From UHGV virus genome UHGV-0210098: a DNA stretch of 64,000 nucleotides; one strand, given 5' to 3'. Made by a program: the position numbers and the translations under genes. The stretch comes from a virus. Positions 4,061 through 44,668 of this stretch are shown here, in pieces (position 1 is the stretch's first letter; each line of letters begins with the position of its first letter). Under the pieces are notes generated by a model that worked only from the letters and a program-made list of their open reading frames with translations, did not search any database and was not told the origin of the DNA.

Positions 4061-4173
4061 AAATACCCATTATTGGGGAAGAAATAGGTATAAATGGGGA
4101 AACAATTCCGGGAATGAAAAAGCCGAGCGAAATGCCCGGCTGTTGGTCTAAATGTAGAAGAAAATAGACGGCG

Positions 4174-4575: not shown

Positions 4576-4615
4576 GTAATCCAAAAGTTAAAGATGTGAT
4601 GCAAAGGTAGGTGTT

Positions 4616-4623
4616 TACCTTTG
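4616..4623 (+). promoter_or_regulatory. Candidate Bacteroidetes sigma-AB -7 box (TAccTTTG, matching TAnnTTTG) about 35 nt upstream of the first gene of the long rightward operon.
   Basis: Motif read directly. No clean -33 TTTG at canonical spacing. Confidence 0.3.
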
Positions 4624-4657
4624 CTCAATAATTATAACTTTTTAATCACATCAAGAC

Positions 4658-5155: not shown

Positions 5156-5168
5156 AACATTACACACA

Positions 5169-6380
5169 ATGATAGATCCAAATAAACCAATCATAGATCC
5201 ACGGACAACAGTCGTAGACGGAACTACACCGCCTACTACTGTTACTCCTACAGGTGGAACTACTCCACCGGCCACAACACCCGACAATGTTGTGCGCAGG
5301 GACGATACGCAGCCGGTTGTTCCAAGTGGAGGCTCGACAACGACCACAACAAAGACAACCACTTCTGTCCCTATATCCACCTCCATACCTGCTGAATATA
5401 CCGCGAGTAGTTATGAAGAACTTATACCGCAGCTTGAAAAACGTATGGCCGAGTATAAGCCGTTGTCTGAGGAGGAACTGAAAAAGTTACGCCGCAGACA
5501 AAAGGCCGAGGGCATTATCAGCGGCATATCTGACGCTGTTCAATCAGTTGCAAACCTTGTCTTTACCCACAACTATGCACCTAACATGTACAACCCCAAA
5601 GAGGGTATGTCAGCCAAGACAAAAGAACGGTTTGACAAAGAAAAAGCGCAACGAGAGGCTGACGCAGACAAATACCTCAACTATGCGCTTACAATCGGCA
5701 AGATGAAAGATGCCGACAAACAGAGAGGATTACAGGCATGGCAGACAGAACAGACCCTTGCCCGACAAGACCGCGCATTTGACGCAGGTAGAAAAGACCG
5801 TGAAGATGATGTCGCATTCCGCAACAAGGACTATGACGAGCGTGTTCGTCAGTGGCAAGCCAACTTCGACCGTCAAGGTGAATGGCACAAGGAAGAGGGT
5901 CAGCGTTGGGAGCGTCAGTTTAAGGAGAGCGTTCGTCAGTTCAATGTAAGTTCTTCACTTGAACGGCAACGCATCAACATCGCAGCTCAACAAGCCGCCC
6001 ACGCCATGCAGCAGGGTCAGATGACATTCAATCTCGGCTCCGGCAATGGCAATGTTACTCTGACTATGGACAAACTCAATGCGGAGACCGTTTCGCGCAT
6101 CTTTCACACGCTTCCTGAAAGTGCATTATATGAAAATGTAGAAATTAAAGATAAAGACGGCAATGTCACAGGGTACAGAAAAGAACCTAAGGTCAAGGGC
6201 GACCCGATTGTGCGGGATGGCTTTATCGTTGGCCACAAAGAGCCGACAACAGAGGCCATGCTTATAGCCATCGGTGCAAATGTGGAAAATTCTCCTGCGA
6301 CACAGAAGGCAATCAGGCAGGTTGCAGGTTTGGAGAAAGGCGACAAAACGGGAGATAATACAATGCCAGGAGTAAAGTAA
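5169..6380 (+). CDS. Hypothetical protein with a Thr/Pro-rich low-complexity N-terminal linker followed by a charged helical region.
   Basis: The in-frame ATG at 5169 avoids overlap with the upstream gene; the alternative ATG at 5091 overlaps by 65 nt. Confidence 0.5.
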   Translation: MIDPNKPIIDPRTTVVDGTTPPTTVTPTGGTTPPATTPDNVVRRDDTQPVVPSGGSTTTTTKTTTSVPISTSIPAEYTASSYEELIPQLEKRMAEYKPLSEEELKKLRRRQKAEGIISGISDAVQSVANLVFTHNYAPNMYNPKEGMSAKTKERFDKEKAQREADADKYLNYALTIGKMKDADKQRGLQAWQTEQTLARQDRAFDAGRKDREDDVAFRNKDYDERVRQWQANFDRQGEWHKEEGQRWERQFKESVRQFNVSSSLERQRINIAAQQAAHAMQQGQMTFNLGSGNGNVTLTMDKLNAETVSRIFHTLPESALYENVEIKDKDGNVTGYRKEPKVKGDPIVRDGFIVGHKEPTTEAMLIAIGANVENSPATQKAIRQVAGLEKGDKTGDNTMPGVK

Positions 6381-6391
6381 AAGACAAGATT

Positions 6392-9300
6392 ATGACGAAC
6401 CCTATAAATGAAAGTACAAAGTGGCTTTACGGAAAACTCACAGGATTAGGTTATAATGTGGGCAAGGATGTCAATGAGTTTGACAACCTTATACGCACAA
6501 ATGCAGAATCGCGCCAATGGGCGTATGATACGGCAAGGAAGAACGGTCTCAACGTGGGCAAAGATATGGACGAGTTTTCCTCGCTGGTTGGTGGTACAGT
6601 TGCCCCTCCTGCCACTGCGCAAGCGCAACCACAACAGACACCGGCCACAGCCTCAACCGTGAAACCGATAACTGATAATACCGCACAGCAAGCAACCGTA
6701 CAACCTGCACAGGCACAAGGTCAGAAACTCACTCCCATGCAGCAAATGGGCTTTCAGATGCAGATTGACGGCATGAACGCTCGCATGAAGCAGCAGAAAG
6801 AGCAGTTTGACCAACGCATGGAGGGCATAAAGAAAGGTAATAAGCCCGGTGCATTCATGGGCGAGCGTGAGTTCAACCCGACAACCGGCAAGATGGAAAC
6901 CAACTACTACACTACGCAGGGTGAACGTGTTGGCTCTATGTTTGAACAGAGCCAACGCAACACAGAATACAATCAGTGGTGGGAAAACAACACCGAGGAC
7001 GGAAAACGGCACAAGGAACAGAGGCTGCAACGCGAGTTTGACGAGCGTTTGGCCACTCTATGGCAGCGTCATAACCCAACAGAGGGAGAAAACGCAGCAG
7101 AACAGGCATGGTCAGCAGCAGAGGCACGGCAGAAGGAGGCGGCGAACCGCATCGCGAGTGAGATTTACAGAGACCGAGGCGACGTCATGAGTAATGCCGC
7201 ATTTCTTGGTGGACACGAGAACCACATCATGAATGCGGCAATGAACACCCACCGTAAACAAGTGGCTCACTACACCAACTTCGACCTCGACCGTCTGATG
7301 AATGACTCGTGGGACAATCTTGGAGAGGCAGGACAGAAAGCACTTATTGACGACTGTTATAAGATGCTCCGCTACCGCAATCCGGGATTGGATGAACTTG
7401 TGTTGTATAATCAAGCCAAACAGTTTGCTCGTCAGCAGTCAGACCTCAGACTTTATAACCTTGCTGTTGAGAAAAACCTGCCCAAGGGTAATCTTGAGTA
7501 TCTCATGCGCAAGATTGGCGACATGAATATGATTGCCAATATATCCAAAGGTATTGCAGTATCATCTGCCAACGGAAAGACCGGCGACATGGCCGCATAC
7601 GAAGCCGCCAACGAACAATACAGACAGGACGGCCACAAGATACTTGATGTAACCGGCACCGTTGCCGGATTTGCCCTCGACCCCACTACATGGCTGTCGG
7701 CAGGTGTCGGCAGTGCCGCAACAAAGGGCGCGATGTGGGCAGGTGGCCGTTATCTCGCAGGACGAGGAGCAACAGCAGCAGTTACCAATGCCGCCACTCG
7801 TCAATTTGCCACCTCCATGACCGGGCGCATTGTCGGTGGTGTGGTCGGCGGTGCTGCCAACTTCGGCACATTTGAAGGTGTCAAGGAAATGGAAAACCAA
7901 TTTGCCCACGGTGGCCATGTCGTAGGACAGGACGAAACCGGCAAATACATCAACGAGGGATATTCCGCCGGGGCAGTGGCCGGGCAGTTTGGTCATGGTC
8001 TGTTGATGGGTGGTGCCATTGGTTGGCTTGGCCCCGTGTCGGGCAATGTTTCCGACAAACTCGTCAGAGGAACATCAAGCACAGTTGGCAAGGTTGCTAC
8101 TCGCGCAGGTGTCTATACAGGCGCAACTATGGCCGAGGGTACAATCTTCTCCGTTCCCGAATGGATAGAGGGCGACCGTGACGGCTTTGACGTGTGGACT
8201 GACAACATGGCCATGATGGTAGGTTTCAAGGCCAAACACATATTAAAGAGTGCCGGTGGTGTTCTCGGCGACCTCAAAGCATCATTTGACAGCCCTGCCA
8301 ACGGAGCAAAGAACCGCCTCGACTTTGAGAGTAGACTGCGTATGCGCATGGATACTCCTTCAGACGGCGGCATGGCACTGACAAAGGACGAGGAGGCCGA
8401 ACTGAAGCGTTATGGTTACGACCTGCGCGACCTTGTGGAGAGTGCCGAGCGCACCGGCGATGCTTCCGAGGGAAACATCATTGCAAAGGACGCCCCCGAA
8501 ATCGTTAGCCGACTGACAGACATGGTAACAGACCCACGTGTCAGTGAGGCAGCGAGAGCCAAGATGTATTACTATGCCACTGGCCGCAAACTTCCGATGT
8601 CCACCATTATGAAAGGTGAACTCTATGAGGACGGAAAGGGAGGATTTATCGTGGAGTCGCAGGGTGCAAATGGCGTGATAACCTCTCGCTCATTCAAGAA
8701 CCGCAAGGAGGCCGACCTTGAATTGCAGCGCATCAACCGTCAGACCGAACTCAACAGCATAGAAATTGGCGAGCGTTATCAGCAGACAACCGACTTCGAA
8801 AACCGTTTACAGGAGGCTTGCCGCACCGTTGCATCTGAAAACGGTTGGGACATGGTGGAGGTTTACCGTACCTGCGAAGAAGCACGGCGGAATTACCTCC
8901 GTGGCGGCGACAAGCAATTTGACGAGGCACAGCAGAACATCCTCCGCAAGGTAACGGATGCAATGGGCGAATTTGAGGAAACCGGCGCAACCGATGCCAT
9001 GCGTGGCCGCATCAACGAGAAATACGGCGTGGATATTGACGCAGCAATCCGTAAGGAGGCCAACCGCCGCACACAGGCCGAGCAGACTGCCATAGACGAG
9101 TATATAGATGAACTTATCCCCGACAAAGCAAAAGACCGTCCTGTTGAGGATGCAGATGTTGAGGACATCACCAATCAGAAGAGTTTGCCCGGCGGCGAGG
9201 AAACTTTTGATGATGAATTTGGTAACGAACCTATCGACCCTCGCTTTGACGGTGGAGAGGTTGCGCTCGACTACGACCCTCATCAGCCCGGTGGTGAGCA

Positions 9301-12300
9301 GAAACCCATTGGCCGTGCCGTCATGAAATACAAAGACCGTCCTGTCGAGGTATTGAGTGGCCGTGTTGTGATGATGGAGGACGGCACCATGATTGACAAT
9401 GAACGCAGCGATAACTCTATTGTCATTCGCGACCTCGCCACCGGTGAGATTGAAATGGTTTCACCCGAAGCCATTCTTTCATACGAAGAATATGCAGCCT
9501 CTGTTGATGAGGCTGAAACGACATCAGAGCAAGGTAAAGCACCCGAAGCATCTGTCGAGGAGCAATCCAAATACACCTCCGGCCAAATCAAGATACGAAA
9601 CTCTGATGGCACCGAAACGCGCGGTGTCCTTACAGGCTATGTAGATGAGGACGGCAAACATGAGTATTATGTTGAGGGCGACCTGCAACATCTTCACTAT
9701 GCTTCAGAGTTTGAACTCGACAACATTCTTTCAGACTATCAGCCGGACGCGCCGCAAGAACCCATCACGCCGAAAGACAGTCAAGGCAACGACCTTTCCG
9801 TAGGTGATGAGATAGTTCTGTCAGCCGGTCGCACAGGCATAGTCAGCGACATACAGCCCAACGGTGCTGTAACAGTAGACCACAACGGCGAGAGTGTGAC
9901 CTATAATGAACAATTCGGCGACATTACTGCCACTGGGTTGCGCAAGGTTACGCCTACTCCTGTTGCAGAAGAAGTACCGACCACCGTTCCAGAAACCGCA
10001 GAAAGTGTTCCCACAACAGCGGAAACAACCGAAAATCCGTCTGTACCTGTTCCCAATTCTTCTGAAAATGGTAACAATGGCGGTGTAATTATTCCAACTG
10101 ATGGCAACATTGGTGCGGAGAATATTCCTGTCCCTGCGGCAGCACCTCAGAGTGAGGTGGCACAACCACAAGCAGTAGAGCCTACACCATTGCAGCGTAT
10201 TCCTCGTGATGAAAAGGGAGAACCTATCTTTGAACAGGCAGACAGCCCCGAAACCGCGTGGGATGCCCTTGTGGAGTTTAGCGAGGGTGATGCTGCCACG
10301 GCCAAAGAAATTGCAGATACTATGGCCGAGGAGAAGCGCAAAGCATTTGAAAAGGCACAGAAGCAGAAACCTAAAGGCAAGACCCCGACAGAAATCCTTG
10401 CATCGAAGAAAACCAACTCTGCCGAACTCGCAAAGGCAGAGAGTGAGTATCTCCATTGGCAAAAGATGGCAAATGTAGAACAGAGCCGTCAGAACGCAAT
10501 CCGCTCACAGCAGGAGGCCGAGGCTCGCCAACGTGCCGCTGAACGTGCAGAGGCAGAAAAGGCAGAACGTGAGGCACGAGAAGAAGCGGCAAGACTTGAG
10601 CGTGAAGCATTGGAGGGTATTCCCGAGTGGCACATGGACACTCCCGAGAATGCCCGAAAGCGTGGTGCGCGCCGTTATGGCGGTCAGATGTTCACTCGTC
10701 AAGAGCCTGTTCAGAATGTGCCTGGTAAAGAGGTTGAGGTCAAATTCTCACAGAAAGACCTCCCGAAAGGCCGTGTCGCTGTCATTGAGGCTGAGCAGTT
10801 GCAGCCCTCACACACACAGGGACAGCGCAATCCTATGTTCTTTATAGAGGAGGCACAGCCCAAGAACCGTTCCGAGGCCGTTTCCATGAACGCTGCAAGA
10901 GATATGGCCGAGGGCATCCGTCCGCAGGAAATCACCGGCAGCGCAACAGCGTACACAGGCGCGCCCACTGTGAACACTCGCGGCGAGGTCATTCAAGGCA
11001 ACAACCGTTCAGATGCACTCCGTTACCTTTGGCAGAACAATTTGCCGGAGCAACAGCAGACCTACAAGCAATATCTTCTCGACAATGCCGAGCAGTTAGG
11101 ACTTGACACTGATGCCGTTGGTGCCATGCAGCACCCTGTCCTTGTCAATATGCTTGATGTGGACGATGCAGATGCCATACGTTTAGGACAAATGACCGCA
11201 CAGGACACCGAGAGTGGAGGCATTGAACGTATCAAGCCCAAGAATGTAGCGCAGAAACTTGGTGAAGGTATGCGCTCCTTTGCCACTCGTCTACTCAGCA
11301 GCGGCGATGATGAGGCCACCTTTGGGCAGCTCGTAGACCGTAACGGAACAGAGGTGTTGAAGTGGATGAACCATGTAGGTGCAATCAGCAACACTCAATT
11401 TCAGTCCGCTTTTGACAGCAAGGGCAGTCTTACGGCAGAAGCCAAGAACGACTTGCAGAAAGTCCTCTATCAAGCCGTATTCAAGGGAGGTTCACAGCAG
11501 TTGGAAGAAATGTTTGACCGGCTCCCGGCCAAAGCACAACGCGCAATCCTCTCCACCGCGTTCCGCGATATGGACTCTCCTTTTGCCGGGAAGATGCTCC
11601 CCGAGATACAATCATCTATCATTGCCTATAATGAGTTGATGCAAGACCCGGCATTTGAGTCTGCAAAGAACTTGGAGGAAGCATTGAGGACAGTTGAGGC
11701 GTTCAAGCGTCAGATTTCTCTTGATGATAGGTTTGAACAGTATATGCCGGCCGATAATTTCAGTAACTTTGCACTGCAATTGGCGGCAATGTATAAGGCG
11801 AGCGATATGTCGCAGACCACTATCGCATCCTATTTCAATCAGATGTACGACCTTGCACAAGGCAAAAAGGCCGCTACTCTCTTTGAGGAAGCCGACACAA
11901 CGGAATATCCTCTTGCCGAGGTTATCAAACAAGTATTAGGAATAGATTATGAACCTGCAAAGAATGGAAACAACAATGTCACAGATGGAGGTGCTAATGT
12001 GGCTCTCCGTAATCAAGTCGGCCAAGGAGGGGAACTCCGAGGCAATGAACCACCTGCAAACGGAGAACAAACTCCGACAGGAACAGAACCGTCCGAGCGT
12101 GGAGCAGGAACTTCAGACAATAGCATTGAAGGAGGACGAGATACCAATGTCAACGGAGGAACAGTTGATGTTGAAGCAAATGGAGGATTGGCAGATGAAA
12201 TAACTCCTGCTATCGGTCCATTTGGGGAAATATATACACAATTCAAAGGAAAATCCCAAGAGGCAATAGCCTATTTGCTTGACAAGAAAAGTGGTGAAGC

Positions 12301-18300: not shown

Positions 18301-21300
18301 CGCGGAGGTAAAGGCAAGAGAAATGCTTGACCGTGCCACTGACGATGTGGAGGACTTCGACAGCATGGGCATTGATGCCGTCCTTGTCGATGAGGCTCAC
18401 GAATACAAGCACCTCGGATTTGCCACTGCCATGCAGCGTGGCGTGAAAGGTGTAGACCCCTCATATAGCAAAAAGTCGCAGGGAGTATTCCTCAAAGTTC
18501 AGTCCGTGCTTGAAAAGACAGGCGGCAAGAATGTAGTATTTGCAACCGGAACACCTATCAGCAATACCGCCGCAGAGATATGGACTTTCATGCGATACCT
18601 CATGCCGGCAGATGTGATGAAGGACTATGGCATCTACTACTTTGATGATTTTGTCCGCAACTTCGGCAATCTGCAACAGATGATGGAGTTCAAGACCAAC
18701 GGCAAGTTTGGCGAGGTAAACCGCTTTGCCGGTTATGTGAACTTGCCCGAGCTTGTGCGTATATGGTCTACAGTTGCTGATACCGTTCTTACACGAGAGG
18801 CCGGTGGCGTAAGCGACAAGATACCGCAGATGGAGGGTGGCAAGGCAACCGACCTTTTCATGCCACAAACTCGCGCATTACGTTCCGTCATGAAGTATGT
18901 AAAGGAGCAACTTGACGAATACGAGAAAATGAGCGGCAAGGAGAAGAAAGAGAACAGCCATATTCCCCTTACTATGTATGGTATAGCCAAGGCCGCAGCC
19001 GTTGATGCCAGGCTTGTTCAACGAGACGCGGAAGACGATGCAAACAGCAAATGCAATGAGGCTGTACGTCAGACACTCCGAACACTTGAAGAAACAAAAG
19101 ACTACAAGGGAACGGTGGCCATATTTGCCGACAACTATCAGCGGAAGAACCATGAGACCGACAAGGTAGAGTTCAACCTGTTTGAGGACATCAGAAAGAA
19201 ACTCATAGATGCCGGTGTTCCGTCTGAACAGATTGTCGTGATGAAATCCGGCATGACCGTAAACAAGAAACTCGACATCTTCAGCCGTGTAAACTCCGGC
19301 GAGGTTCGCGTTGTCATGGGCAGCACGTTTACCCTCGGCACAGGCGTGAACATACAGGAGCGTCTGCACACTCTTATCCACCTCGATGCACCTAATCGCC
19401 CAATGGACTATACACAGCGTAATGGACGCATCCTGCGACAGGGAAACCTGCACAATGAATGGGGAATGCCTGTGCGTGTACTCCGTTTCGGTGTTGAGGA
19501 CAGCCTTGATGTTACTGCATATCAGCGTCTGAAAACTAAAGGTGCTATTGCATACAGCATCATGAACGGCAAGCAACTCATGGATAATTCTATGGAGAAC
19601 CGCTCACTTGAGGAGGAGCAAGACCTGTTCGGCGACATCACCGCGCAGCTCTCCGGCTCTGAATATGCCCTGTTGAAAAATCAGATTGAGAAAGAGGTTC
19701 GCAAACTGACTGCCCAACTGAAGAATTGGGAGGCAGACCAAACCTATATCCACAACCGTAAGCGCCAGATAGCAGGACAGAACCGGGAAGCGGAACAGCG
19801 CATTGCAGCCAACAAAACCTATCTTGAAAAAGTTGAGGCCGCTACCATTGGTGACATCACGGTAGGAAAACTCTCGTTCCCGTCAATAGATGCAATGGAG
19901 GACTTCTTCACCGAGCAGAACAAGAAGAAAGCCGAGTTACAGGAGAAAGTGCGTAAAGACGGTTACTCCTCACGTCCTGCTACGAGCGATATATTTATTT
20001 CCGTTGGAGGCTTCGACTTCCATGTGCATACAGAAATCAGCAGAGAAACTAAGAGCCAACAGGGCAGTTTGTTCTATACAGCACCGGCCAAAATGACATA
20101 CTCATGTCCCGAACTCGGCATAGAAGCCATGCCTGTTAAGGAGAACAAGGTGAAGAATGCTGTAACAGAAATCATGAACGATGTTGTCAGCGGTGAAGAT
20201 TTCCGTGGCCGCATTGAAGCAGCCGAGCGTTACATAGAGCGCAACAATGCAGAGTTGCAATCCATTTCTGCACGTGACGGTGTTCCTTTCAAGGACGCGG
20301 AGGCACTTGCCAAAGCAGAGGAAAAACTTGCCGAATACGAGGAACTGATGAAGCAGGAAATGGAGGCCAAAGAAGCTAAGTATGCAGAAATGGATAAAGA
20401 TGTAGAGGCCGCATCCAACATTGAACTAACAGAGGAAGATAGTGATGATGTTGCAAGCGAGCCTGTTGCTCGATATTCAGCAGAAAACAGTAACTTTGCA
20501 AGCAGATATGAAACCAAAGACGGAAAAACAATCGGCTACACTTCCGAAAACCCCAAAGCCTACGGAGTATCAGAAGCCAAAGACGGAACTGCCAATAGCG
20601 GGACCCGAGAAGCAGACATACAACGGCAAGGAGATAATCTACTCGCCGGACGCAATAGTAGACTGAACACCGAAGCCGGAGAGTTCAGCCTTGTAGAGCG
20701 TGTATTTACAAAAAACGGTTCGTTCAATTTTACAAGCGGTGAGAAGATTGAAAGCGCGGACGATGTTGCCTTTATCTTCTCTGCCCTTGAAGATGCAGCC
20801 AAAGAACACGCATTTGTCGTCTATGTAAAGGACGGACGGCCTACGGTCGTAGAACTTGGAATGGGAACATTCACTGCAACAATGGTGGATATTCCTACCG
20901 CATCATTGGCCTACAACCGCATCCGTCCCGACCAAGTCTATTTCGTACATAACCATCCGAGTGGCAATCTGAAATGTTCCTTGCAGGATGTTCAGATGCT
21001 GCAAAAGATAGAGGGAATGTGCGATGTCCCTGTTTCGGGTGTTATTATCAATCTCAAGACAGGCAAGTACGGAACATTTGACACTTCAAACAATACAGGT
21101 GTCGGAAACAAGCGTACTCCCGAAAACGAAAGCCGTCTGACAGTCCACACTTTGGATAAACAGATATTTGCGCCGGACTACGACCCAATGGCACAGTCTT
21201 TGGTACGGATGCCGAGTGATGTTGCGCAGTTCCTAAACTCCCACCGTATGGGCGACCGTGCAAAGGTTTCATTCCTCATACTCACTCGTGCTGGCCGCAT

Positions 21301-24300
21301 TGTCGGTAACATTCACACTCCTTTCACTGAAATTTCCTCCAATCCTAAAGAGGTTGCACGTTATATCAGTGAGCGTGTTATCCAATTTGGTGGTGAGTCA
21401 GCAATCCTGTATGGCGACTTCCCGATGTCAAGTAGCGATGGAAAAGACTACAAGCGGCTGAAAGACTTGTTGGCGCAAGTAGGCGGAAACACTCTGCTCG
21501 ATGTTATGCGTGTGGAGGGCAACCATACGAGAAGTGCCAATGATGAAGGACTACTCTATGAACCAGGCAGCGAATATGGAGCATCACAGAACGGTGATAT
21601 TCGTTTCCGTGAAGTTGAGGATGATGCCATATTGACAGAGTTCGCAGAGGGCAAGACCGTAAAGGCATATCGCACCATGCAGGTGATTGACGGCAAACTC
21701 TACTCGCCTATGGCTACAAAGGTGGGCGGCAAGTCTACGCCGGAAATCAAACTCGGAGTGCCGGAACAGAGCGAGGAACACCCGGAAATCATCAAAGGCA
21801 CAAAGGTAGGTCGTGACGGTATCGAACAAGGTTATGTTGTAATTGACAAAGGACTTGGCAAGGGTACTCTTACTGTGGCCTACAATCCGTATGCCCATAC
21901 CTCGCGTACTGTGCTCAACGACCAATTCTCATCTGCCTATATCCGTCCGAACCTTGTCACCGTAGAGGTGGAGGTGCCGGAGAGCGAACTGACAAGCGGA
22001 TACCGCGCACCGATGGCCAAAGACGCTGTAGGTGAAATCTCATGGCATAGCGGTAGTGTAAGCGGACAGTTGGCCGAACTCGGTCAGCCTCGCCGCGTTA
22101 TCCTCACCCGGTACGACAGACCTGTACGCATCGTTCCATTCCGTGAGGTTGCCGAAATGATTGCAGCGCAACTTGACGGAACAGACATTGCCATACCTTA
22201 CAATGTTGTGCAGCCGCAGTTGCGCTCCGAATTGGAACGCCTCGGGATTGCCGTCAGTGAAGAAGCCACCGGCACCGTTGCCGATGCTTCCGATTTTGGC
22301 AAAGCCGAATATGTTACAGACCAAGAGATAGAGCGCATCAATGCTCATCAGCAGGAAATGGCTCAGACTTCCAATGATGCCAAGACAGGCCATGCAGAAA
22401 GGCTTTCAAAGAAGTTTGGCACTCCTGTACGCATTGTTACAGATGCCAATGAACTGACTAACGCAAATGCGGAGCAACAAGCGCGTATGCGTAAGAGCAA
22501 GGGCTTCTATGACCCTGCCACAGGTGAGGTTGTTGTCGTGCTGCCCAACAATGCAAATGTGGAAGATGTGGCAGAGACCGTATTCCATGAAGTCGTAGCC
22601 CACAAGGGACTGCGTGAAATGATAGGCGATGAAAACTACGATACCTTCTGCGATGAGGTGTACGACCACCTTAAAGACGACTTGAAAAAACAGGTAGACG
22701 AAGAAAGTACACGCCGCTTCATGGGAGAACCGGGAAAGGACTATCAGCATCACCGCCGTGTGGCTATTGATGAAATGTTCGGTCGCATGTCAGAGAAAGG
22801 TTTTGAGGACTTCACCAAGGCAGAGCGCGGAATTTGGGCGAAACTCAAAGCAAAGGTATTAGAGGCCATCAACAAGTTCCTCGGCTCGCTGAAACTACCG
22901 AAATGGGTAAAACTCGGTGATAATGAGTTGCGCTATATTCTGTGGCGCAGCCATGAGAAACTGCGCTCAAAAGGCGACTATGTGGACATGGCTCGTGATG
23001 CAGCAAAACGCAACGAGTTAGGCCTGTCAAACGATGTCCGTTTCCGTGATAGTGAGACCGGCGATATTTGGAATGACAGAAGTGTTGGCTTGGAAGAACG
23101 TATCACCAACGCAGCCATAAGATTGAGCAACAATCAAAGTGGCGACCTCACACTGCGCAATGATGCAATGAAAGCAATTGGTGGAAACCTTACCTCTCTC
23201 CGTAGAGCAATGGCCATTCAGAAGCAGTTCGACCAATCCACCGTTAAACGAGTGGCAGACCTTGCCCGAATACTGATGCAGAATGGCTATCTCTCCGGCA
23301 TGAGTTCCGGGGAAATGCAGCGATTGATTTCTGCTGTAAAAAATTCCGTCGGCCATGCTGCTGTAAAGGAAAGCACTCAGAAGATTATGGACATCATGGT
23401 TGATAATCAACTGCGTAATGGTGAGGCCACACTTCGCAAACTCCTTACTATTCGTGGAAGCAAGGTCGATGCAAGAGGTGTCGAAGTGCAGGGCGCACTC
23501 GATGTAGACGGACAGCGCACTATGGAGGTTGTCAAGAAAGCCATGTCACTCAAGGAGGACGACATTAACGACCGAATAGCAGATGCACTAAACCGTATGA
23601 GCGACCCCGACCAAACTATTGCAGACAAAGCCGCAATAGAATATACCGGCCTCAACATGGCTCTCGACTATGTTCAAAACATTGCCGACAGTAAGGCCGA
23701 GGAGAAAGCATTGCGTGACGGACTGAAAACTGTCAAAGAAGATAAGGATGCCGGACGCATGACTGAAGATGCCTACAAACAGTTTGTAGATGCTACGGAG
23801 AATGCAATCCGCAAGAATAAGATTGAAAGAGCTGAGGCTTACTTCAACCTTGTTGGCCGTCTGTCAGACTCCCTGCGAGGAAGCATTGAGAATGCAAAAG
23901 CATTCCGCGAGGCAGAAAAAGCACGTATCAACGAGATACACCACAATGCCAACTCCGACATGGAGGGCAGACCGACCAACGAGCACCATAAGGACAATTG
24001 GAAAGACAAGTTTGTCAACAATGGTTTCATTCAGTCACTGTTCGCTCCTCTCGGCACCTTTGACCAGATACTCCGCGTGTTCGGCAACAAGAGTGCGGGC
24101 GGCGAGGGCTACCTGTGGAACCGCTTCATGCGCGGTTGGGTAGATTGCCGCAACAAGGAGTTACTCGGTGTCAAAGAGAAATTCGCACGTCTGGACGAGA
24201 AGGCCGCTGAATTGTTCGGTAAGGGCAAGATATGGGGCAATCTCATCAGAATGGAAGCGAAGATGCCGAAGGCTACCGTTTCATTCTGGGACGGTGGAGA

Positions 24301-26746
24301 AATGCGCGACCATGAACTGACACAGGGCAACCTGCTCTACATCTACATGGTTGACAAAATGACGGACGGACGCATGAAGCTGCGCCGTATGGGTATCACG
24401 GAGGACGATATAACAAGCATCGAAAACTTCCTCGACCCACGTTTCAAGGTACTTGGCGATTGGTTGCAGAATGAATTTCTTGTTTCCACTCGCAACGAGT
24501 ATAACGAAACACACAAGCGTATGTTCGGCGCATCAATGGCCGCGATTGAGAACTACTTCCCTCTGAAGATATTGGCAAATGCCAGGATAGACAAAGAGGA
24601 AGATGTCAATCAGCCCAACAAGCCGGACGGTATCACTACAAAGACAGGCAGCATCATCAAACGCCGTGTGAACAATCTCGCGCTCGACATTACAGGCGCG
24701 GACGCACTGAGCGTGATACTCGACCATATTACACAGATGGAGCATTGGAGCGCATACGCCGAATGGAACAGGGACCTCAACACCCTGCGCACATACAAGC
24801 GTTTCCGCAACCAAGTTATCAACATGACAACCGTCTATGGTGGAGGCCGTAAGCTGTGGGAGAATTTCAACGACCTGTGTCTTATGGCCGCAGGAGAATA
24901 CCGTCCTTCTGTGTCGAAACTCAACAAGAGCGCGGTCAACCTCGCCAAAGGTGTAACCGCCGCAAAGGTCAGCTTCCGAATGTACACAGCATTGAAGCAG
25001 TTCCTTTCCGCTCCTGCCTATATCCCAGAGGTGAGCACAGCCGCCATAGCAAAGAGCATCGCAAATCCCTATGGTGATTTCAAGTGGTGTCTTGAGAATA
25101 TGCCGATATTCCGTGAGCGTTGGCACTCGCGTATCAGTGGCGACCCGCGACTTCTCAAATCAGATATGGATTGGAATATGTGGCGTAGTCGTGTGATGGA
25201 AATATCCTCCCGCATCGGTATGACCCCAAACGCATTTGTGGATGCCGTAACAGTGAGCATCGGCGCACGAGCCATGTATGAAACCCGACTGAAACAATAT
25301 CTCAAGGAGGGTTATCCGACTGATTCCGCCGAGAAACGAGCCATGCAGGACGCCACAATTCTGTTCAACCAGACACAGCAGTCCTCAGAGTCACCTTTCA
25401 TGTCAACTATGCAAGCAGATAAGGATTGGTTTAGCACCATCTTCACCGTGTTCCGTAACTCGGCCATGTCATACACCCGGCAGCAGTATGACGCTATGCG
25501 TAATCTCAAGCGTAACCTCACACCCGGACAGCGGGCCAAGAGCATTGAGTTTATGACAAAGCAGATACTCCGCGATTGGGACGTTGACCCCGACACTGCC
25601 ACGGATGCAGAGCGTGACCAAGCACAGGGCGCAGCCCAGAAGCGTTTCCGCAGACAACTCAAAAAAGACGTCCTACGAGTTGCCACATTCGGCTATATCC
25701 TTGAATGGCTATGGAACCTCGGTCCATATCTTCCATATCTCATCTTCGGATATTATCTTCTTGAAAAAGATAAGATGTGGGAGGATGCTTTCACACACGC
25801 CTATTTCGGAAGTGTAGAGGGTCTGACCGGCGGTGACGTAATTAGCAGTTTCGGCAATATGTGGGCAAGCGGTGAATGGAATTGGAACCAACTCAGCAAG
25901 GATATGCCGTTGGCGAGCGACATCAACACTATTGCCAACAAATTTATCGGAGGCAAGAATGCCGAGGCCATCAATGACATCATCAACCTGTTGGTACAGT
26001 CGGGTGTTGGTATGAACCCACAGAGCATTACAGATGCAGCAGTGGCCATTACCGATGCTTGCGGCGACGACCCGGCATTGAGCCATGAAGCAGCCATATT
26101 CGTTATGCGTGTCCTGCAAGTACCGCAAAGCCAAATCGACAAAATGTATTTTGACGAGATTGGATTGAGTGGTGAGGAGGCAAGCAAACTCACGCCGGAG
26201 CAGTTGGCACAGCGTTATGCCGAGTACAAGGTCAAGCGCGGCACCCCTCTTGCTCCGTGGTCGTGGGGCGATGAGGAACGCCTCGACAAATATCACAAGG
26301 TTGTTGAGGACAAGATGAAAGAGCGTTTGGATAGCCGAGGTGATGCCGCTGTAAATGAGGCATACGCCGACTTTGAGGCACGTTACAAGGCCGTTGATGA
26401 AAAGGCTAAAGAGGCAAGAGCCTTAATGAGAACAGACTATGCCGCAGCAGCCCAAGCACACGCAGCTCTGCAACAAGACCCCGACTTTACGCTGTATCAG
26501 CGTTTCGGAAGCCTTGACAAGCAACTCGGACGCATTTCCAAGATGTGGCTTACCTCCAAGACCCCGGAAGAAGCAAACCTCGTGGCATCTGCCGTAACCT
26601 CATATCGCGCCGGCATGGTGAAAGTATTGCAAGCAGAAACCGTAGAAAGCCAACAGTCAGCCATGAAAGAACTGACTGACCTCCTTAACGATTTCTACTC
26701 CAAATATCAAGCCATGCAGCCAAAACCGAGCCAACTCAACAGATAA
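6392..26746 (+). CDS. Giant 6784-aa multidomain 'polyvalent' protein (DarB-like: methyltransferase plus helicase, with additional enzymatic modules). Likely a virion-packaged, injected counter-defence protein.
   Basis: A single uninterrupted ATG-to-TAA ORF of 20,355 nt. Recognisable motifs read in the translation are ParB-like, inorganic-pyrophosphatase-like, N6-adenine-methyltransferase-like, SNF2 helicase (GTGKT/DEAH/TGTP/QRNGRILRQGN), RadC-like JAB (HNHPSG) and zincin (HEVVAH). It is followed by a perfect 10-bp-stem hairpin. Confidence 0.85.
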   Translation: MTNPINESTKWLYGKLTGLGYNVGKDVNEFDNLIRTNAESRQWAYDTARKNGLNVGKDMDEFSSLVGGTVAPPATAQAQPQQTPATASTVKPITDNTAQQATVQPAQAQGQKLTPMQQMGFQMQIDGMNARMKQQKEQFDQRMEGIKKGNKPGAFMGEREFNPTTGKMETNYYTTQGERVGSMFEQSQRNTEYNQWWENNTEDGKRHKEQRLQREFDERLATLWQRHNPTEGENAAEQAWSAAEARQKEAANRIASEIYRDRGDVMSNAAFLGGHENHIMNAAMNTHRKQVAHYTNFDLDRLMNDSWDNLGEAGQKALIDDCYKMLRYRNPGLDELVLYNQAKQFARQQSDLRLYNLAVEKNLPKGNLEYLMRKIGDMNMIANISKGIAVSSANGKTGDMAAYEAANEQYRQDGHKILDVTGTVAGFALDPTTWLSAGVGSAATKGAMWAGGRYLAGRGATAAVTNAATRQFATSMTGRIVGGVVGGAANFGTFEGVKEMENQFAHGGHVVGQDETGKYINEGYSAGAVAGQFGHGLLMGGAIGWLGPVSGNVSDKLVRGTSSTVGKVATRAGVYTGATMAEGTIFSVPEWIEGDRDGFDVWTDNMAMMVGFKAKHILKSAGGVLGDLKASFDSPANGAKNRLDFESRLRMRMDTPSDGGMALTKDEEAELKRYGYDLRDLVESAERTGDASEGNIIAKDAPEIVSRLTDMVTDPRVSEAARAKMYYYATGRKLPMSTIMKGELYEDGKGGFIVESQGANGVITSRSFKNRKEADLELQRINRQTELNSIEIGERYQQTTDFENRLQEACRTVASENGWDMVEVYRTCEEARRNYLRGGDKQFDEAQQNILRKVTDAMGEFEETGATDAMRGRINEKYGVDIDAAIRKEANRRTQAEQTAIDEYIDELIPDKAKDRPVEDADVEDITNQKSLPGGEETFDDEFGNEPIDPRFDGGEVALDYDPHQPGGEQKPIGRAVMKYKDRPVEVLSGRVVMMEDGTMIDNERSDNSIVIRDLATGEIEMVSPEAILSYEEYAASVDEAETTSEQGKAPEASVEEQSKYTSGQIKIRNSDGTETRGVLTGYVDEDGKHEYYVEGDLQHLHYASEFELDNILSDYQPDAPQEPITPKDSQGNDLSVGDEIVLSAGRTGIVSDIQPNGAVTVDHNGESVTYNEQFGDITATGLRKVTPTPVAEEVPTTVPETAESVPTTAETTENPSVPVPNSSENGNNGGVIIPTDGNIGAENIPVPAAAPQSEVAQPQAVEPTPLQRIPRDEKGEPIFEQADSPETAWDALVEFSEGDAATAKEIADTMAEEKRKAFEKAQKQKPKGKTPTEILASKKTNSAELAKAESEYLHWQKMANVEQSRQNAIRSQQEAEARQRAAERAEAEKAEREAREEAARLEREALEGIPEWHMDTPENARKRGARRYGGQMFTRQEPVQNVPGKEVEVKFSQKDLPKGRVAVIEAEQLQPSHTQGQRNPMFFIEEAQPKNRSEAVSMNAARDMAEGIRPQEITGSATAYTGAPTVNTRGEVIQGNNRSDALRYLWQNNLPEQQQTYKQYLLDNAEQLGLDTDAVGAMQHPVLVNMLDVDDADAIRLGQMTAQDTESGGIERIKPKNVAQKLGEGMRSFATRLLSSGDDEATFGQLVDRNGTEVLKWMNHVGAISNTQFQSAFDSKGSLTAEAKNDLQKVLYQAVFKGGSQQLEEMFDRLPAKAQRAILSTAFRDMDSPFAGKMLPEIQSSIIAYNELMQDPAFESAKNLEEALRTVEAFKRQISLDDRFEQYMPADNFSNFALQLAAMYKASDMSQTTIASYFNQMYDLAQGKKAATLFEEADTTEYPLAEVIKQVLGIDYEPAKNGNNNVTDGGANVALRNQVGQGGELRGNEPPANGEQTPTGTEPSERGAGTSDNSIEGGRDTNVNGGTVDVEANGGLADEITPAIGPFGEIYTQFKGKSQEAIAYLLDKKSGEAVGALHHKEIGDIDLVYGKEGTGHSDGYGLAKLAKYHPEVLNNLQDILNDMVVTKRSENRVQLESEKYQAAVRLKWDNKKKTWLLTMFEKKNSVLDNTTDTGKTLVGNGNDTATPENTVISDGKDNTSLPNEQISEEEIATQHADVEEEQTLQASIKAAASEVNTEPTPAQAEAGNYKKGHITIGEFDITIENPAGSVRKGVDADGKEWQTTMANTYGYIKGTEGVDGDHIDVFLHSDMDQWDGRKAFVVDQTNTDGSFDEHKVMLGFNDKDEAMSAYLANYDADWAQTHPGLRISETNIEDFNKWVESSHRKTKPFADYSTVSKVSDDAPATKSAPVVEGNGYKVDPKPYTNKQGKTLDTYLVTFDRDFSKEELSAIRSKAKALKGWYDRETRGWMLRSSDDAKAFAEDIIGKSDDEVADEAPLSMADMERPTEAPVKKVDVPGVFDALKTKGEAKLSDHAKTVEQPKPKKRKWISDEDAAEFDSLRDNLRNHFGKSGDMVQEDAVGYGQPQPKQMDAEVLRMGTRMTYLMMKGGLRSFSDYCEAMKDELPDIFDDMRPHLKSLYAAAQNMEEVMQLGWDEEMDDRKTVKAFDVYNFDKPEAKDIIATAQHTVDEQASQQQTEQIIQTLKDKRNEQRKKEADDTSADTEIIVDKAETTASEVESKLEAATTEQDAERLSHSIDKELDEVNKQLALLGYYEAEEVDKDFNEAYGYMRNAERKATQDAHNLATQLATDLGLTIDPKDRVRKSKYNFGSKIAHSNVAPAGGEVYIKLPLAEGRELSMTLSLDKNEPWLERGRAERPDDLVLTRIMFRVEDKTGKSTRYVTSNDFISPTSTYDELLAHIRRSVRHLLPEETVQPATPLTPQPGEDMVQMAERVSKDRKAKKPQVKPEQPIGDLFGGLFDNIDAEADKPQSVTTKTKENEKSNVQPRTKEEGRGGQQPRPNEPLGESAKHEDERTDGGRMAERGGEHTVSDTERSGSVSQPHQSERGVTEPKNTRNNHTERGVDYAPKGEKARIDANLAAIELAKKLLASGATATPKEMEVLRRYSGWGGLGAAFNEGQAWAPNPINKRLRELLTPEEYEAAVMSRNSAYYTPAPVIDAMWDIAKALGFKGGNIMEGSAGIGNIIGLMPSDISKRSDIHAVEIDDTTGGILSLLYPDANVEIHGFEKTRIGNGTVDLAITNVPFVTGLHVMDESGDSDLSKKFRDIHDFCIAKNVRKLREGGIGIFITSSGTLDKSQKLRNWLVGDKEGCADVVGAFRMNNQTFGGTAATSDIIVIRKRVNGRKSPNAIDVSTVSVARTASFEDDKGKTKDLPMLINRYFIEHPENMGGEMFFGFEQGDTYRPTSIGLFPTRTADQAGRMAAWVQRMADMDWKTEAVSKPTEQTSHINETLGEGVKEGSMVTDSDGNLCVARMGRAVPLTINKNKIKGRTKEECFKDYSEIKDALAEVLKYQTEHEDDAGLQPLLDRLNKAYDTFVERYGNLNKNNNLAWLRNDVDFSSIVALETYSEKGSKDGQKIKTYGKTDIFSRRVVEKESEPAPKNVKDGIIASIYKFGRIDPKYLATQLGKSDAEVKQEIIDSGLGFENPTTGQMEVSYEYLSGNVREKLRQAREANEAAGGGYEANIKALEAVVPMNIPAHLIEFTLGSSWVEPKLYERYIKERTGLDVKLTNAGGTWNMNEPYYTDEPKNKEMGVRSEKLDIFIPGHKLIEAAITNKTITVNRTVKDTDGTHTETDPAATTACATKVDEIRQDFKDWAREQMQSDPDLSMRMEEVYNEQFNNSVPKSIPDEFVPEHFGGAATIVGGKPFQLRPHQAKAVIRATTQPVLLAHEVGTGKTYTLITTAMEMRRLGTARKPMIVVQNATVGQFVASAKALYPNAKVLTLEDADRNAEGRRAFYAKIKFNDWDMIVVPQSVFERIPDSIERQTQFIQDVIDEKLMVLEQMQEADPSGKSQIVRAAKQEIERKRNELSQLANGGTTDKKKEKDAKKAAVTRQNAEVKAREMLDRATDDVEDFDSMGIDAVLVDEAHEYKHLGFATAMQRGVKGVDPSYSKKSQGVFLKVQSVLEKTGGKNVVFATGTPISNTAAEIWTFMRYLMPADVMKDYGIYYFDDFVRNFGNLQQMMEFKTNGKFGEVNRFAGYVNLPELVRIWSTVADTVLTREAGGVSDKIPQMEGGKATDLFMPQTRALRSVMKYVKEQLDEYEKMSGKEKKENSHIPLTMYGIAKAAAVDARLVQRDAEDDANSKCNEAVRQTLRTLEETKDYKGTVAIFADNYQRKNHETDKVEFNLFEDIRKKLIDAGVPSEQIVVMKSGMTVNKKLDIFSRVNSGEVRVVMGSTFTLGTGVNIQERLHTLIHLDAPNRPMDYTQRNGRILRQGNLHNEWGMPVRVLRFGVEDSLDVTAYQRLKTKGAIAYSIMNGKQLMDNSMENRSLEEEQDLFGDITAQLSGSEYALLKNQIEKEVRKLTAQLKNWEADQTYIHNRKRQIAGQNREAEQRIAANKTYLEKVEAATIGDITVGKLSFPSIDAMEDFFTEQNKKKAELQEKVRKDGYSSRPATSDIFISVGGFDFHVHTEISRETKSQQGSLFYTAPAKMTYSCPELGIEAMPVKENKVKNAVTEIMNDVVSGEDFRGRIEAAERYIERNNAELQSISARDGVPFKDAEALAKAEEKLAEYEELMKQEMEAKEAKYAEMDKDVEAASNIELTEEDSDDVASEPVARYSAENSNFASRYETKDGKTIGYTSENPKAYGVSEAKDGTANSGTREADIQRQGDNLLAGRNSRLNTEAGEFSLVERVFTKNGSFNFTSGEKIESADDVAFIFSALEDAAKEHAFVVYVKDGRPTVVELGMGTFTATMVDIPTASLAYNRIRPDQVYFVHNHPSGNLKCSLQDVQMLQKIEGMCDVPVSGVIINLKTGKYGTFDTSNNTGVGNKRTPENESRLTVHTLDKQIFAPDYDPMAQSLVRMPSDVAQFLNSHRMGDRAKVSFLILTRAGRIVGNIHTPFTEISSNPKEVARYISERVIQFGGESAILYGDFPMSSSDGKDYKRLKDLLAQVGGNTLLDVMRVEGNHTRSANDEGLLYEPGSEYGASQNGDIRFREVEDDAILTEFAEGKTVKAYRTMQVIDGKLYSPMATKVGGKSTPEIKLGVPEQSEEHPEIIKGTKVGRDGIEQGYVVIDKGLGKGTLTVAYNPYAHTSRTVLNDQFSSAYIRPNLVTVEVEVPESELTSGYRAPMAKDAVGEISWHSGSVSGQLAELGQPRRVILTRYDRPVRIVPFREVAEMIAAQLDGTDIAIPYNVVQPQLRSELERLGIAVSEEATGTVADASDFGKAEYVTDQEIERINAHQQEMAQTSNDAKTGHAERLSKKFGTPVRIVTDANELTNANAEQQARMRKSKGFYDPATGEVVVVLPNNANVEDVAETVFHEVVAHKGLREMIGDENYDTFCDEVYDHLKDDLKKQVDEESTRRFMGEPGKDYQHHRRVAIDEMFGRMSEKGFEDFTKAERGIWAKLKAKVLEAINKFLGSLKLPKWVKLGDNELRYILWRSHEKLRSKGDYVDMARDAAKRNELGLSNDVRFRDSETGDIWNDRSVGLEERITNAAIRLSNNQSGDLTLRNDAMKAIGGNLTSLRRAMAIQKQFDQSTVKRVADLARILMQNGYLSGMSSGEMQRLISAVKNSVGHAAVKESTQKIMDIMVDNQLRNGEATLRKLLTIRGSKVDARGVEVQGALDVDGQRTMEVVKKAMSLKEDDINDRIADALNRMSDPDQTIADKAAIEYTGLNMALDYVQNIADSKAEEKALRDGLKTVKEDKDAGRMTEDAYKQFVDATENAIRKNKIERAEAYFNLVGRLSDSLRGSIENAKAFREAEKARINEIHHNANSDMEGRPTNEHHKDNWKDKFVNNGFIQSLFAPLGTFDQILRVFGNKSAGGEGYLWNRFMRGWVDCRNKELLGVKEKFARLDEKAAELFGKGKIWGNLIRMEAKMPKATVSFWDGGEMRDHELTQGNLLYIYMVDKMTDGRMKLRRMGITEDDITSIENFLDPRFKVLGDWLQNEFLVSTRNEYNETHKRMFGASMAAIENYFPLKILANARIDKEEDVNQPNKPDGITTKTGSIIKRRVNNLALDITGADALSVILDHITQMEHWSAYAEWNRDLNTLRTYKRFRNQVINMTTVYGGGRKLWENFNDLCLMAAGEYRPSVSKLNKSAVNLAKGVTAAKVSFRMYTALKQFLSAPAYIPEVSTAAIAKSIANPYGDFKWCLENMPIFRERWHSRISGDPRLLKSDMDWNMWRSRVMEISSRIGMTPNAFVDAVTVSIGARAMYETRLKQYLKEGYPTDSAEKRAMQDATILFNQTQQSSESPFMSTMQADKDWFSTIFTVFRNSAMSYTRQQYDAMRNLKRNLTPGQRAKSIEFMTKQILRDWDVDPDTATDAERDQAQGAAQKRFRRQLKKDVLRVATFGYILEWLWNLGPYLPYLIFGYYLLEKDKMWEDAFTHAYFGSVEGLTGGDVISSFGNMWASGEWNWNQLSKDMPLASDINTIANKFIGGKNAEAINDIINLLVQSGVGMNPQSITDAAVAITDACGDDPALSHEAAIFVMRVLQVPQSQIDKMYFDEIGLSGEEASKLTPEQLAQRYAEYKVKRGTPLAPWSWGDEERLDKYHKVVEDKMKERLDSRGDAAVNEAYADFEARYKAVDEKAKEARALMRTDYAAAAQAHAALQQDPDFTLYQRFGSLDKQLGRISKMWLTSKTPEEANLVASAVTSYRAGMVKVLQAETVESQQSAMKELTDLLNDFYSKYQAMQPKPSQLNR
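10725..11040 (+). other. ParB-like nuclease (ParBc) domain within the giant protein.
   Basis: ...RVAVIEAEQLQPSH... and GEVIQGNNRSDALRYL match the ParB N-terminal-domain pattern (I.p..lqP.. / ..i.G..R..Aa..l). Confidence 0.5.
12835..13160 (+). other. Family-I inorganic-pyrophosphatase-like domain within the giant protein.
   Basis: IENPAGSVRKGVDADGKEW...MANTYGYIKGTEGVDGDHIDVFL parallels the E. coli Ppa segments IEIP.GS..KYE.D and YPCNYGYI..T...DGDPVDVLV. The signature is D-G-D-H-I-D-V, with His where Pro or Glu is expected. Confidence 0.5.
15310..16160 (+). other. N6-adenine DNA-methyltransferase-like domain (gamma-class order) within the giant protein.
   Basis: YYTPAPVIDAMW (motif X), MEGSAGIGNIIG (AdoMet motif I), and LAITNVPFVTG at the motif IV position. 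Motif IV reads NVPF rather than the canonical (N/D)PP(Y/F). Confidence 0.6.
17690..19560 (+). other. SNF2/DEAH-box superfamily-2 helicase domain within the giant protein.
   Basis: Motif I LAHEVGTGKTYT, motif II LVDEAHEYK, motif III FATGTPISNT, motif VI QRNGRILRQGN. Confidence 0.85.
20685..21090 (+). other. RadC-like JAB/MPN metalloprotease domain within the giant protein.
   Basis: YFVHNHPSGNLKCSLQDVQ contains the H-x-H-P-S-G...S..D JAB signature found in RadC. Confidence 0.65.
22440..22700 (+). other. Zincin-like (HExxH) metallopeptidase motif region within the giant protein.
   Basis: ETVFHEVVAHKGLREMIGDENYDTFCDEV shows HExxH with a downstream acidic residue. Confidence 0.45.
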
Positions 26747-44638: not shown

Positions 44639-44668
44639 CGGGACCGGAAGGCCATTAAACAATTGACA

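Follow-up and report, generated by a model that had tools for sequence, protein, structure and literature searches.

The 64,000-nt stretch of the virus genome UHGV-0210098 analysed here (referred to as the window) contains a giant open reading frame (ORF) that runs from position 6392 to position 26746 on the plus strand. Starting with ATG, it encodes 6784 amino acids (aa), and its product has a calculated mass of 755.6 kDa and a pI of 5.2, the gene accounting for 31.8% of the window. The sole stop in its translation was the terminal one, and the window is free of N; the other two forward frames across the same interval contained 250 and 440 stops. By our own arithmetic, 6784 successive sense codons would arise by chance in random sequence with a probability of (61/64)^6784, or ∼1e-141. 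The ORF listing and the one-stop translation thus confirmed the single intact 20.4-kb ORF of 6784 aa described in an earlier reading made from the letters of the DNA (the sequence-only reading), and the computed mass was in agreement with the roughly 750 kDa given there. As a whole, the window looks like a temperate phage (or prophage) that is nearly complete, at about 62 kb. Its gene order is integrase, a 165-aa ORF, a 429-aa ORF, the giant, portal, an ORF resembling HAD proteins and polynucleotide kinase (PNK), and terminase, and its further genes include an SU10-like major capsid protein (MCP), a 2778-aa ORF, a reverse transcriptase, a holin-like gene, replication genes, and a tRNA-Gln (Table 1).

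A search with domain hidden Markov models (HMMs) was performed on the whole protein. Five of the six modules named in the sequence-only reading were recovered (ParB, inorganic pyrophosphatase-like [InPase], methyltransferase [MTase], SNF2 helicase, and RadC), and PBECR1 was added to them; the sixth, an HExxH zincin, was not upheld (see below). The ddrB-like ParB domain scored 82 to 86 bits against the PF18763 profile (gathering cutoff, 27.6) and retains a GxxR-type motif, QGNNR. The InPase domain, with 179.9 bits against a cutoff of 26.8, covered positions 2 to 135 of the 135 in PF18823, and its acidic metal-binding signature is present as the pyrophosphatase-like DGDHIDV at aa 2196. PBECR1 passed marginally (29.7 bits against a PF18809 cutoff of 27.6), covering profile positions 1 to 103 of 104. 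For RadC, scores of 27.7 to 32.6 bits were obtained against a PF04002 cutoff of 22.1, with E values of 2.9e-6 for the whole protein and 8.5e-8 for a subsegment, and the JAMM motif HxH-x7-S-xx-D is intact (HNHPSGNLKCSLQD at aa 4853). HMM-supported domains covered ∼44% of the residues, leaving ∼56% outside them, so that the earlier remark that over half of the sequence is motif-less holds. The regions comprising aa 1 to 1450 and 5561 to 6784 matched no Pfam or PHROG family even at an E value of ≤1.

The largest recognizable part of the chain is the block matching phrog_10089 ("DarB-like antirestriction"; 885 + 1449 bits). In it, the DNA MTase was identified by phrog_11801, with a weak match to Eco57I MTase, and the helicase by the Pfam families ResIII, SNF2-rel, and Helicase_C. 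The domain order is an LPD36-type motif (GxG[GAS]; SGWGG at aa 3021), then the EcoKI/TaqI-like N6-adenine MTase (motif I, EGSAGIG at aa 3091; motif IV, NVPF at aa 3156), and then the superfamily 2 (SF2) SWI2/SNF2 helicase (GTGKT at aa 3807, DEAH at 4000, TGTP at 4052, and QRNGRILRQG at 4342). Motif IV reads NVPF, compared to the catalytic NPP(Y/F), and TNVPFV was invariant in eight aligned relatives; as judged from this alignment, it is a conserved variant of the motif. By BLASTP, phage P1 DarB proved colinear with this part of the giant: residues 10 to 274, 1041 to 1184, and 1483 to 1592 of DarB aligned with aa 2949 to 3253, 3989 to 4128, and 4317 to 4434 (E values of 1e-19 [27% identity], 4e-14, and 2e-4, respectively), in concordance with the MTase-then-helicase order that the sequence-only reading had likened to that of DarB. 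Likewise, residues 15 to 164 of P1 DdrB matched the ParB part with 29% identity (2e-13). On the basis of these similarities, one chain joins the ParB domain of DdrB to the LPD36/N6-adenine MTase/SNF2 helicase block of DarB, both being homologues of antirestriction proteins found inside the P1 head. The same chain also holds InPase, the PBECR1 RNase domain, RadC/JAB, a domain with an HExxxH motif (a probable metallopeptidase), and large helical modules at its N and C termini.

Table 1. Modules of the giant protein and genes surrounding it in the window
Feature	Position	Strand	Evidence or remark
Tyrosine-integrase-like gene	1740-3227		Left side of window
165-aa ORF, T7 gp14-like internal virion protein (weak)	4658..5155	+	PF24072; Gly-rich N terminus
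429-aa ORF, no assigned function	5091..6380	+	11-nt gap to giant
N-terminal region, aa 1-1450	6392..10741	+	No Pfam/PHROG family
ddrB-like ParB, aa 1462-1587	10775..11152	+	PF18763 4.9e-23; QGNNR aa 1535; P1 DdrB BLASTP
PBECR1 predicted RNase, aa 1973-2062	12308..12577	+	PF18809 1e-6; accessory
InPase (inorganic-pyrophosphatase-like OB-fold), aa 2139-2277	12806..13222	+	PF18823 2.6e-53; DGDHIDV
DarB-like block, aa 2486-4751	13847..20644	+	phrog_10089; LPD36 motif, N6-MTase, SNF2/DEAH helicase
RadC-like JAB, aa 4788-4878	20753..21025	+	PF04002 2.9e-6; JAMM motif; accessory
HExxxH domain, putative metallopeptidase, aa 5315-5560	22334..23071	+	HEVVAH aa 5399; phrog_14770; core
C-terminal all-alpha module, aa 5561-6784	23072..26743	+	No Pfam/PHROG family
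Last ∼110 aa (aa 6643-6753)	26318..26650	+	hhalign between two tail types
P22-like portal	26807..28786	+	phrog_156 3.5e-100; PF16510 P22_portal 1.8e-45
Terminase large subunit	29269..31437	-	phrog_2 3.7e-18
tRNA-Gln, anticodon TTG	63916-63987	-	Right edge of window

The only literal HExxH in the giant (HEYKH at aa 4003) is the tail of the helicase DEAH box, and the motif meant by the proposed zincin was presumably HEVVAH, which is an HExxxH. The domain around it, of ∼250 aa, was present in all 49 related complete giants, sometimes twice. Its invariant residues are K, G, G, N, and D, followed by H-E-x3-H-x-G-L-R and by the downstream E5461 and E5468; thus, the canonical zincin signature of HExxH plus a downstream Glu was not found, and the HExxxH variant with its downstream Glu fits. 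Since an HEXXXH motif with a bent helix has been described for a set of metallopeptidases of polyvalent proteins (Iyer, Burroughs, Anand, de Souza, and Aravind, 2017, J Bacteriol, PMC5512222; hereafter Iyer 2017), such an assignment is reasonable, and the domain is probably a metallopeptidase. No match to PF18818 was obtained in Pfam searches with the giant or with 28 homologues, no profile similarity to the HExxH peptidase of P1 DdrB was detected with hhalign, and no sequence match was found in the PDB. Fold searches did not confirm a zincin fold. In a structure model made with AlphaFold2 (AF2; aa 5300 to 6499), the motif lies in a helix after three short strands. One relative in IMG/VR (L161) carries two HExxxH copies in a single chain, at aa 4530 to 4651 and 5049 to 5220 of its giant, which fits the remark that polyvalent proteins can contain several peptidase domains (Iyer 2017, PMC5512222). 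A phmmer search with the HExxxH domain alone against 1.84 billion cluster representatives yielded 1698 proteins, and most of the top 150 were 4000 to 7236 aa long.

The distribution of the giant was determined by means of profile scans. With an alignment of the C-terminal module, 227 relatives were found in IMG/VR, of which 80 loci were kept, each with 10 kb of upstream flank. The giant reading frame was nearly always open across the whole flank, and its openness in 80 independent loci indicates that the giant is not an assembly artefact. An alignment of the central part, covering MTase and helicase, was then used to scan IMG/VR and the GTDB species genomes for whole genes. From IMG/VR came 289 relatives, including 56 complete ORFs with a median of 5745 aa (range, 2114 to 6990) and two open-ended homologous ORFs of at least 7126 and at least 7389 aa; GTDB rendered 109 relatives, including 45 complete ORFs (median, 6018 aa; maximum, 7471 aa). 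The sequence-only reading had placed the protein at the extreme of the size range for its class, which is not borne out by these values: its size is striking but typical of its own phage lineage.

The relatives from both sources are Bacteroidales-type phages or prophages of about 60 to 66 kb. Genome matches in GTDB were overwhelmingly to Bacteroidales (Duncaniella, Muribaculaceae, Prevotella, Bacteroides, Parabacteroides, and Leyella), the closest to the giant being a Duncaniella metagenome-assembled genome (89%). Cultured isolates also carry giants: 6613 aa in Prevotella sp. MGM2, 5786 aa in Bacteroides congonensis, 6368 aa in Leyella stercorea, and 6340 and 6441 aa in Muribaculaceae isolates. 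The phage hosting the giant is a temperate, P22-portal-type phage of gut Bacteroidales.

Broken relatives of the giant are the exception. Some related loci hold ORFs of merely 907 to 3833 aa, and in one relative (L002; ENA ERZ28572483 scaffold_32; 71 to 84% identical) a frame change at positions 9686 to 10007 of that scaffold divides the giant in the linker between helicase and RadC (aa ∼4403 to 4420 of the window protein), resulting in ORFs of at least 3331 and 2151 aa. A programmed shift, a real division of the gene, or an error of assembly could each account for it. In a separate database of protein homologues, neither of two query searches returned a match longer than 2170 aa, and its gene table for L002 omits the upstream ORF of at least 3331 aa yet lists small antisense ORFs; giant genes appear to be under-represented there. 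As that database was unsuited to the question of size, the lengths of homologous ORFs were measured directly in the IMG/VR and GTDB loci. A library of representatives at 50% identity does hold giants, of up to 7236 aa.

To compare coding constraint along the gene, ratios of nonsynonymous to synonymous substitutions (dN/dS) were calculated by the Nei-Gojobori method against three relatives. Values of 0.03 to 0.21 were obtained in every alignable segment, including ∼0.09 to 0.10 in the motif-less N terminus and 0.04 to 0.09 in the C terminus. As dS was >1, and therefore saturated, the ratios are rough; their direction is clear, and they indicate purifying selection along the entire length of the giant. 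Both ends are conserved among related giants, the start reading MTNP or MANP.

When the window protein was mapped against 49 unique complete giants, a division among its modules was observed. The MTase-helicase part (aa ∼2900 to 4700) and the HExxxH domain (aa 5300 to 5560) were each matched by ∼100% of them, ParB (aa ∼1300 to 1600) by ∼85%, and InPase (aa ∼2100 to 2300) by ∼87 to 97%. For their part, aa 1 to 900 were matched by ∼18 to 23%, PBECR1 (aa ∼1900 to 2100) by ∼25%, RadC by ∼10%, and the C-terminal aa ∼5600 to 6784 by ∼24 to 30%. According to this map, ParB, InPase, MTase-helicase, and HExxxH form the common core, and the swappable parts are PBECR1, RadC, and the two ends of the chain (900 aa at the N terminus and 1200 aa at the C terminus). 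PBECR1 is missing, for example, from the relatives L002, L163, and L088. In relatives that have the C-module of the window protein, MuF_C, PBECR1/2/3, LPD3, LPD23, Kinase-PolyVal, ART-PolyVal, Schlafen-AlbA2, or RadC was found just upstream of it.

Most relatives have, instead of this C-module, an alternative tail of ∼1000 aa with Pfam LPD38. The C-terminal 1245 aa had been considered as a universal anchor, which was rejected, given that only ∼25% of giants in the family have them. Alignment between the two tail types was confined to the final ∼110 aa (hhalign probability, 88.9%; E value, 2.4e-6), where a weak common pattern was observed in 41 giants. This segment could be a packaging signal or a portal-docking or encapsidation element. 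An AF2 model of aa 5300 to 6499 built from 32 sequences reached a predicted local distance difference test (pLDDT) score of 77.7 and a predicted template modelling (pTM) score of 0.65, and it was almost entirely helical. Neither sequence nor fold searches found a relative of the C-terminal module in the PDB. Against BFVD, the model gave 65 matches at an E value of ≤1e-3 (best, 1e-30, with a TM score of 0.59), and those listed were all pieces of large phage proteins, mostly second or third segments, with names such as "ART-PolyVal-like," "Large polyvalent protein associated domain," "MuF C-terminal domain," "PolyVal ADP-ribosyltransferase," "Nuclease," and "Structural protein." These matches to large polyvalent proteins of phages suggest that the motif-less C terminus, as modelled, is a widespread, unnamed carrier module of such proteins. 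The N-terminal region contains two short helical repeats and a conserved Gly-rich segment at aa ∼400 to 620; the AF2 model of aa 1 to 1100 was too poor for a fold search (pLDDT, 56.8). A hydropathy scan of the giant revealed no classical transmembrane helix.

The portal begins 60 nt past the end of the giant, on the same strand, and this arrangement is widely conserved: of 118 related loci, 105 had a portal homologue directly 3' of the giant and in the same orientation, the median distance between the two genes being 77 nt. The sequence-only reading had put the gene immediately upstream of both portal and terminase, which is correct for the portal; the terminase lies beyond it on the minus strand. 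Among 56 loci, 27 had a homologue of the 429-aa ORF on the upstream side of the giant. The 165-aa ORF aligned with PF24072 (T7_gp14) over its full length, with an E value of 0.001 and 19.5 bits, which is below the cutoff of 27. All 10 diverged members of its family that were compared also matched this profile at an E value of ≤0.1 (best, 2.2e-7), and the hhalign comparison of the family with the single T7 gp14 sequence was negative. By analogy of position, the order gp14-like gene, 429-aa ORF, and giant recalls the gp14-gp15-gp16 cassette of T7.

Other features of the window were also recorded. Between portal and terminase lies a 153-aa HAD-like ORF (28811 to 29272) that matched the PHROGs "phosphoheptose isomerase" and "polynucleotide kinase" (8e-24) and no Pfam family; its presence among head genes is unusual. 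Besides the MTase domain of the giant, the window has a small DNA methyltransferase gene of its own (54703 to 55416, minus strand; phrog_23224, 6e-62). A complete diversity-generating retroelement (DGR) was found at 35831 to 46108. Its target is the 2778-aa ORF (35831 to 44167; phrog_14959, with weak minor-tail matches), with the variable repeat (VR) at the 3' end (44023 to 44139), followed by the template repeat (TR; 44349 to 44465) and the reverse transcriptase (44618 to 46108); 17 of 17 TR/VR mismatches fell at template adenines.

Taken together, these results make it almost certain that the giant is a phage-type polyvalent protein related to DarB and DdrB, and a role as a packaged and injected counter-defence protein is its probable function. 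The latter proposal is drawn from the domain content, the colinearity with DarB and DdrB, the purifying selection, the adjacency to the portal in 105 of 118 loci, the gp14-like neighbour, the core and accessory pattern, the universal HExxxH domain, the occurrence of the C-module fold in viral polyvalent proteins, and the published virion precedents of P1 DarB/DdrB and JC1 gp69. In such a mechanism, the operon comprising the gp14-like gene, the 429-aa ORF, the giant, and the portal would be expressed late, and the giant, as an internal virion protein, would enter the procapsid close to the portal. At the next infection it would exit with the DNA via the portal and tail channel, and the MTase-helicase would translocate along the incoming genome and methylate it in cis, which would shield it from restriction in the manner of P1 DarB. 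ParB, InPase, PBECR1, and RadC may target nucleotides or nucleic acids that take part in the host response, and the HExxxH domain may cleave the chain, either ahead of ejection or following it, into its functional units. Carriage or encapsidation would fall to the helical C-terminal module, and perhaps to its final ∼110 aa, with effector cassettes being exchanged onto this part. As for the sequence-only reading, it was right in what it observed and broadly right on the class, and wrong on the HExxH motif and the extreme size; PBECR1 and LPD36 had escaped it.

Other explanations must be weighed against this one. That genes were fused by sequencing errors, or that the ORF is a decaying pseudogene, could be argued from the few broken relatives (the frame change in L002 and the loci with ORFs of 907 to 3833 aa), but more than 100 independent assemblies, isolates included, contain intact ORFs of 5000 to 7471 aa, and library representatives also reach such lengths. 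The dN/dS ratios, far below 1 throughout, and the conserved start and end are equally contrary to it; we have rejected this explanation on the comparative and dN/dS evidence and regard its probability as negligible. A cytoplasmic role is conceivable on the grounds that sequence alone proves no packaging: the giant would then be a multienzyme protein of the infected or lysogenic cell, serving to methylate progeny or prophage DNA, to remodel the host, or to exclude other phages. The presence of a further small DNA MTase gene in the phage shows that modification matters to it, and some polyvalent-type domains occur also as cellular proteins (Iyer 2017). However, in more than 100 loci the gene has a fixed place beside the portal within the head-morphogenesis block, it neighbours a gp14-like gene for an internal virion protein, and relatives of its MTase-helicase are proven virion proteins in P1 and JC1. 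Maintaining a 20-kb gene would, moreover, be expensive if separate small enzymes could do the same work, and we consider an unpackaged protein very unlikely.

A somewhat less remote, though still unlikely, alternative is that the giant is primarily a structural ejection protein of the internal core, a counterpart of T7 gp16, whose helical ends would form a conduit across the cell envelope with the enzymes as passengers. It would account for the T7-like gene order (gp14-like gene of 165 aa, 429-aa ORF, giant, and portal), the conserved Gly-rich segment, and the large all-alpha C-module. The published giants of the Burkholderia phage Bcep22 and of Atu_ph08 have N-terminal transglycosylase or cell-wall hydrolase domains, as gp16 does; none was found in the giant of the window, nor was any sequence or fold similarity found between it and gp15, gp16, or an RNA polymerase. 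More tentatively, the packaged counter-defence protein may be a modular effector-delivery chassis, a possibility to which we would give a minor but real chance. The core and the helical carrier, ending in the ∼110-aa element, would then dock at the portal beside the gp14-like protein, with interchangeable cassettes released by the peptidase after ejection. RadC, PBECR1/2/3, MuF_C, ART, kinase, Schlafen-AlbA2, and the alternative N- and C-terminal modules may be the cassettes, exchanged among phages in the way of the tips of polymorphic toxins. If so, the N-terminal module (1450 aa) and the C-terminal one (1200 aa) would represent new domain families for ejection or encapsidation.

In the gut of humans and animals, temperate Bacteroidales phages rank with the commonest viruses, and the present lineage devotes about a third of its genome to one gene. 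Should the giant be an injected multienzyme package against host defences, it would be a major factor in deciding which Bacteroidales strains are open to these phages, a rich source of uncharacterized antidefence activities (HExxxH peptidase, InPase, ParB-NTPase, RadC, and the two large families), and a natural case of a protein of more than 700 kDa delivered through a phage portal. The discovery is incremental, since the class, the DarB-like annotation, and the virion association of 4.5-kaa homologues have already been published; what it contributes is a view of the whole lineage and two large uncharacterized modules, and no new principle is involved.

The polyvalent class was defined by Iyer 2017 as proteins with 2 to 15 domains, often of more than 2000 aa, the largest cited being a 12,242-aa plasmid protein (PMC5512222). 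Its hub domains are those of the giant: DdrB-ParB, InPase, PBECR1, the LPD36-MTase-SNF2 dyad, and the metallopeptidase (MPTase)-like HEXXXH domain. As in the phage type of that class, unrelated enzymatic domains are combined in one chain encoded beside the portal/terminase packaging genes. Pfam and PHROG searches found more than the two unrelated effector-type domains that define membership, and the (pro)phage context is provided by the integrase, P22-like portal, terminase, and SU10-like MCP of the window. The domain mix that led the sequence-only reading to this class was thus recovered (ddrB-ParB, PBECR1, InPase, MTase, SNF2 helicase, and RadC), and relatives of the giant add MuF_C, PBECR2/3, ART-PolyVal, Kinase-PolyVal, LPD3, LPD23, and LPD38 from the same repertoire. 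On the other hand, the giant has 6784 aa compared to "often >2000 aa," its RadC domain was listed as confined to polyvalent proteins of conjugative elements, and, unlike in the class description, ∼56% of it, including aa 1 to 1450 and 5561 to 6784, matches no Pfam LPD or other family.

In P1, DarB is a component of the virion head and shields DNA in cis against type I restriction, DdrB undergoes processing and packaging, and autoprocessing of polyvalent proteins by MPTases has been proposed (Iyer 2017, PMC5512222). The darB gene likewise adjoins the portal gene. The giant differs in that it fuses homologues of DarB (2255 aa) and DdrB (995 aa) with four further domains, reaching three times the length of DarB, and in that its peptidase motif is HExxxH, whereas that of DdrB is HExxH (HELGH).

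T7 gp14-gp15-gp16 and the virion RNA polymerase of N4 offer a comparison in terms of the way of working, all being large head proteins located at the portal and ejected before or with the DNA; the likeness of the window to T7 resides in the gp14-family gene that precedes the giant.

Closer in kind are the giant DarB-like proteins of podophages. That of the Burkholderia podophage JC1 (gp69; 4515 aa; 22.1% of the genome) was detected by mass spectrometry (MS) in CsCl-purified virions, with 51 unique peptides (PMC9144972), and others are Agrobacterium phage Atu_ph08 gp21 (4877 aa), which matches the InPase region of the window protein with 44% identity, and that of Serratia phage Parlo (3764 aa). 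As in the window, an MTase-helicase gene in the virion morphogenesis module takes up at least a fifth of a roughly 60-kb genome. The giant of the window is about 40 to 50% longer and fills 32% of the window, and its carriers are temperate Bacteroidales phages with a DGR.

The closest cultured relatives are the Bacteroides phages BKO1-TP3 and BS-TP4, whose existence makes the proposed role testable. The giant of BKO1-TP3 (gp55, "DarB-like antirestriction," 5553 aa; PQ571269.1) is annotated in GenBank, and the paper on the two phages is silent on the gene; our literature search found no publication discussing the 5- to 7.5-kaa genes of this Bacteroidales lineage. No match to aa 1 to 970, PBECR1, RadC, or the C-terminal 1200 aa of the window protein was detectable in either phage. 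BKO1-TP3 shares with the window the synteny of integrase, small ORFs, giant, and portal, and both phages show 33 to 60% identity over ParB, InPase, MTase-helicase, and HExxxH.

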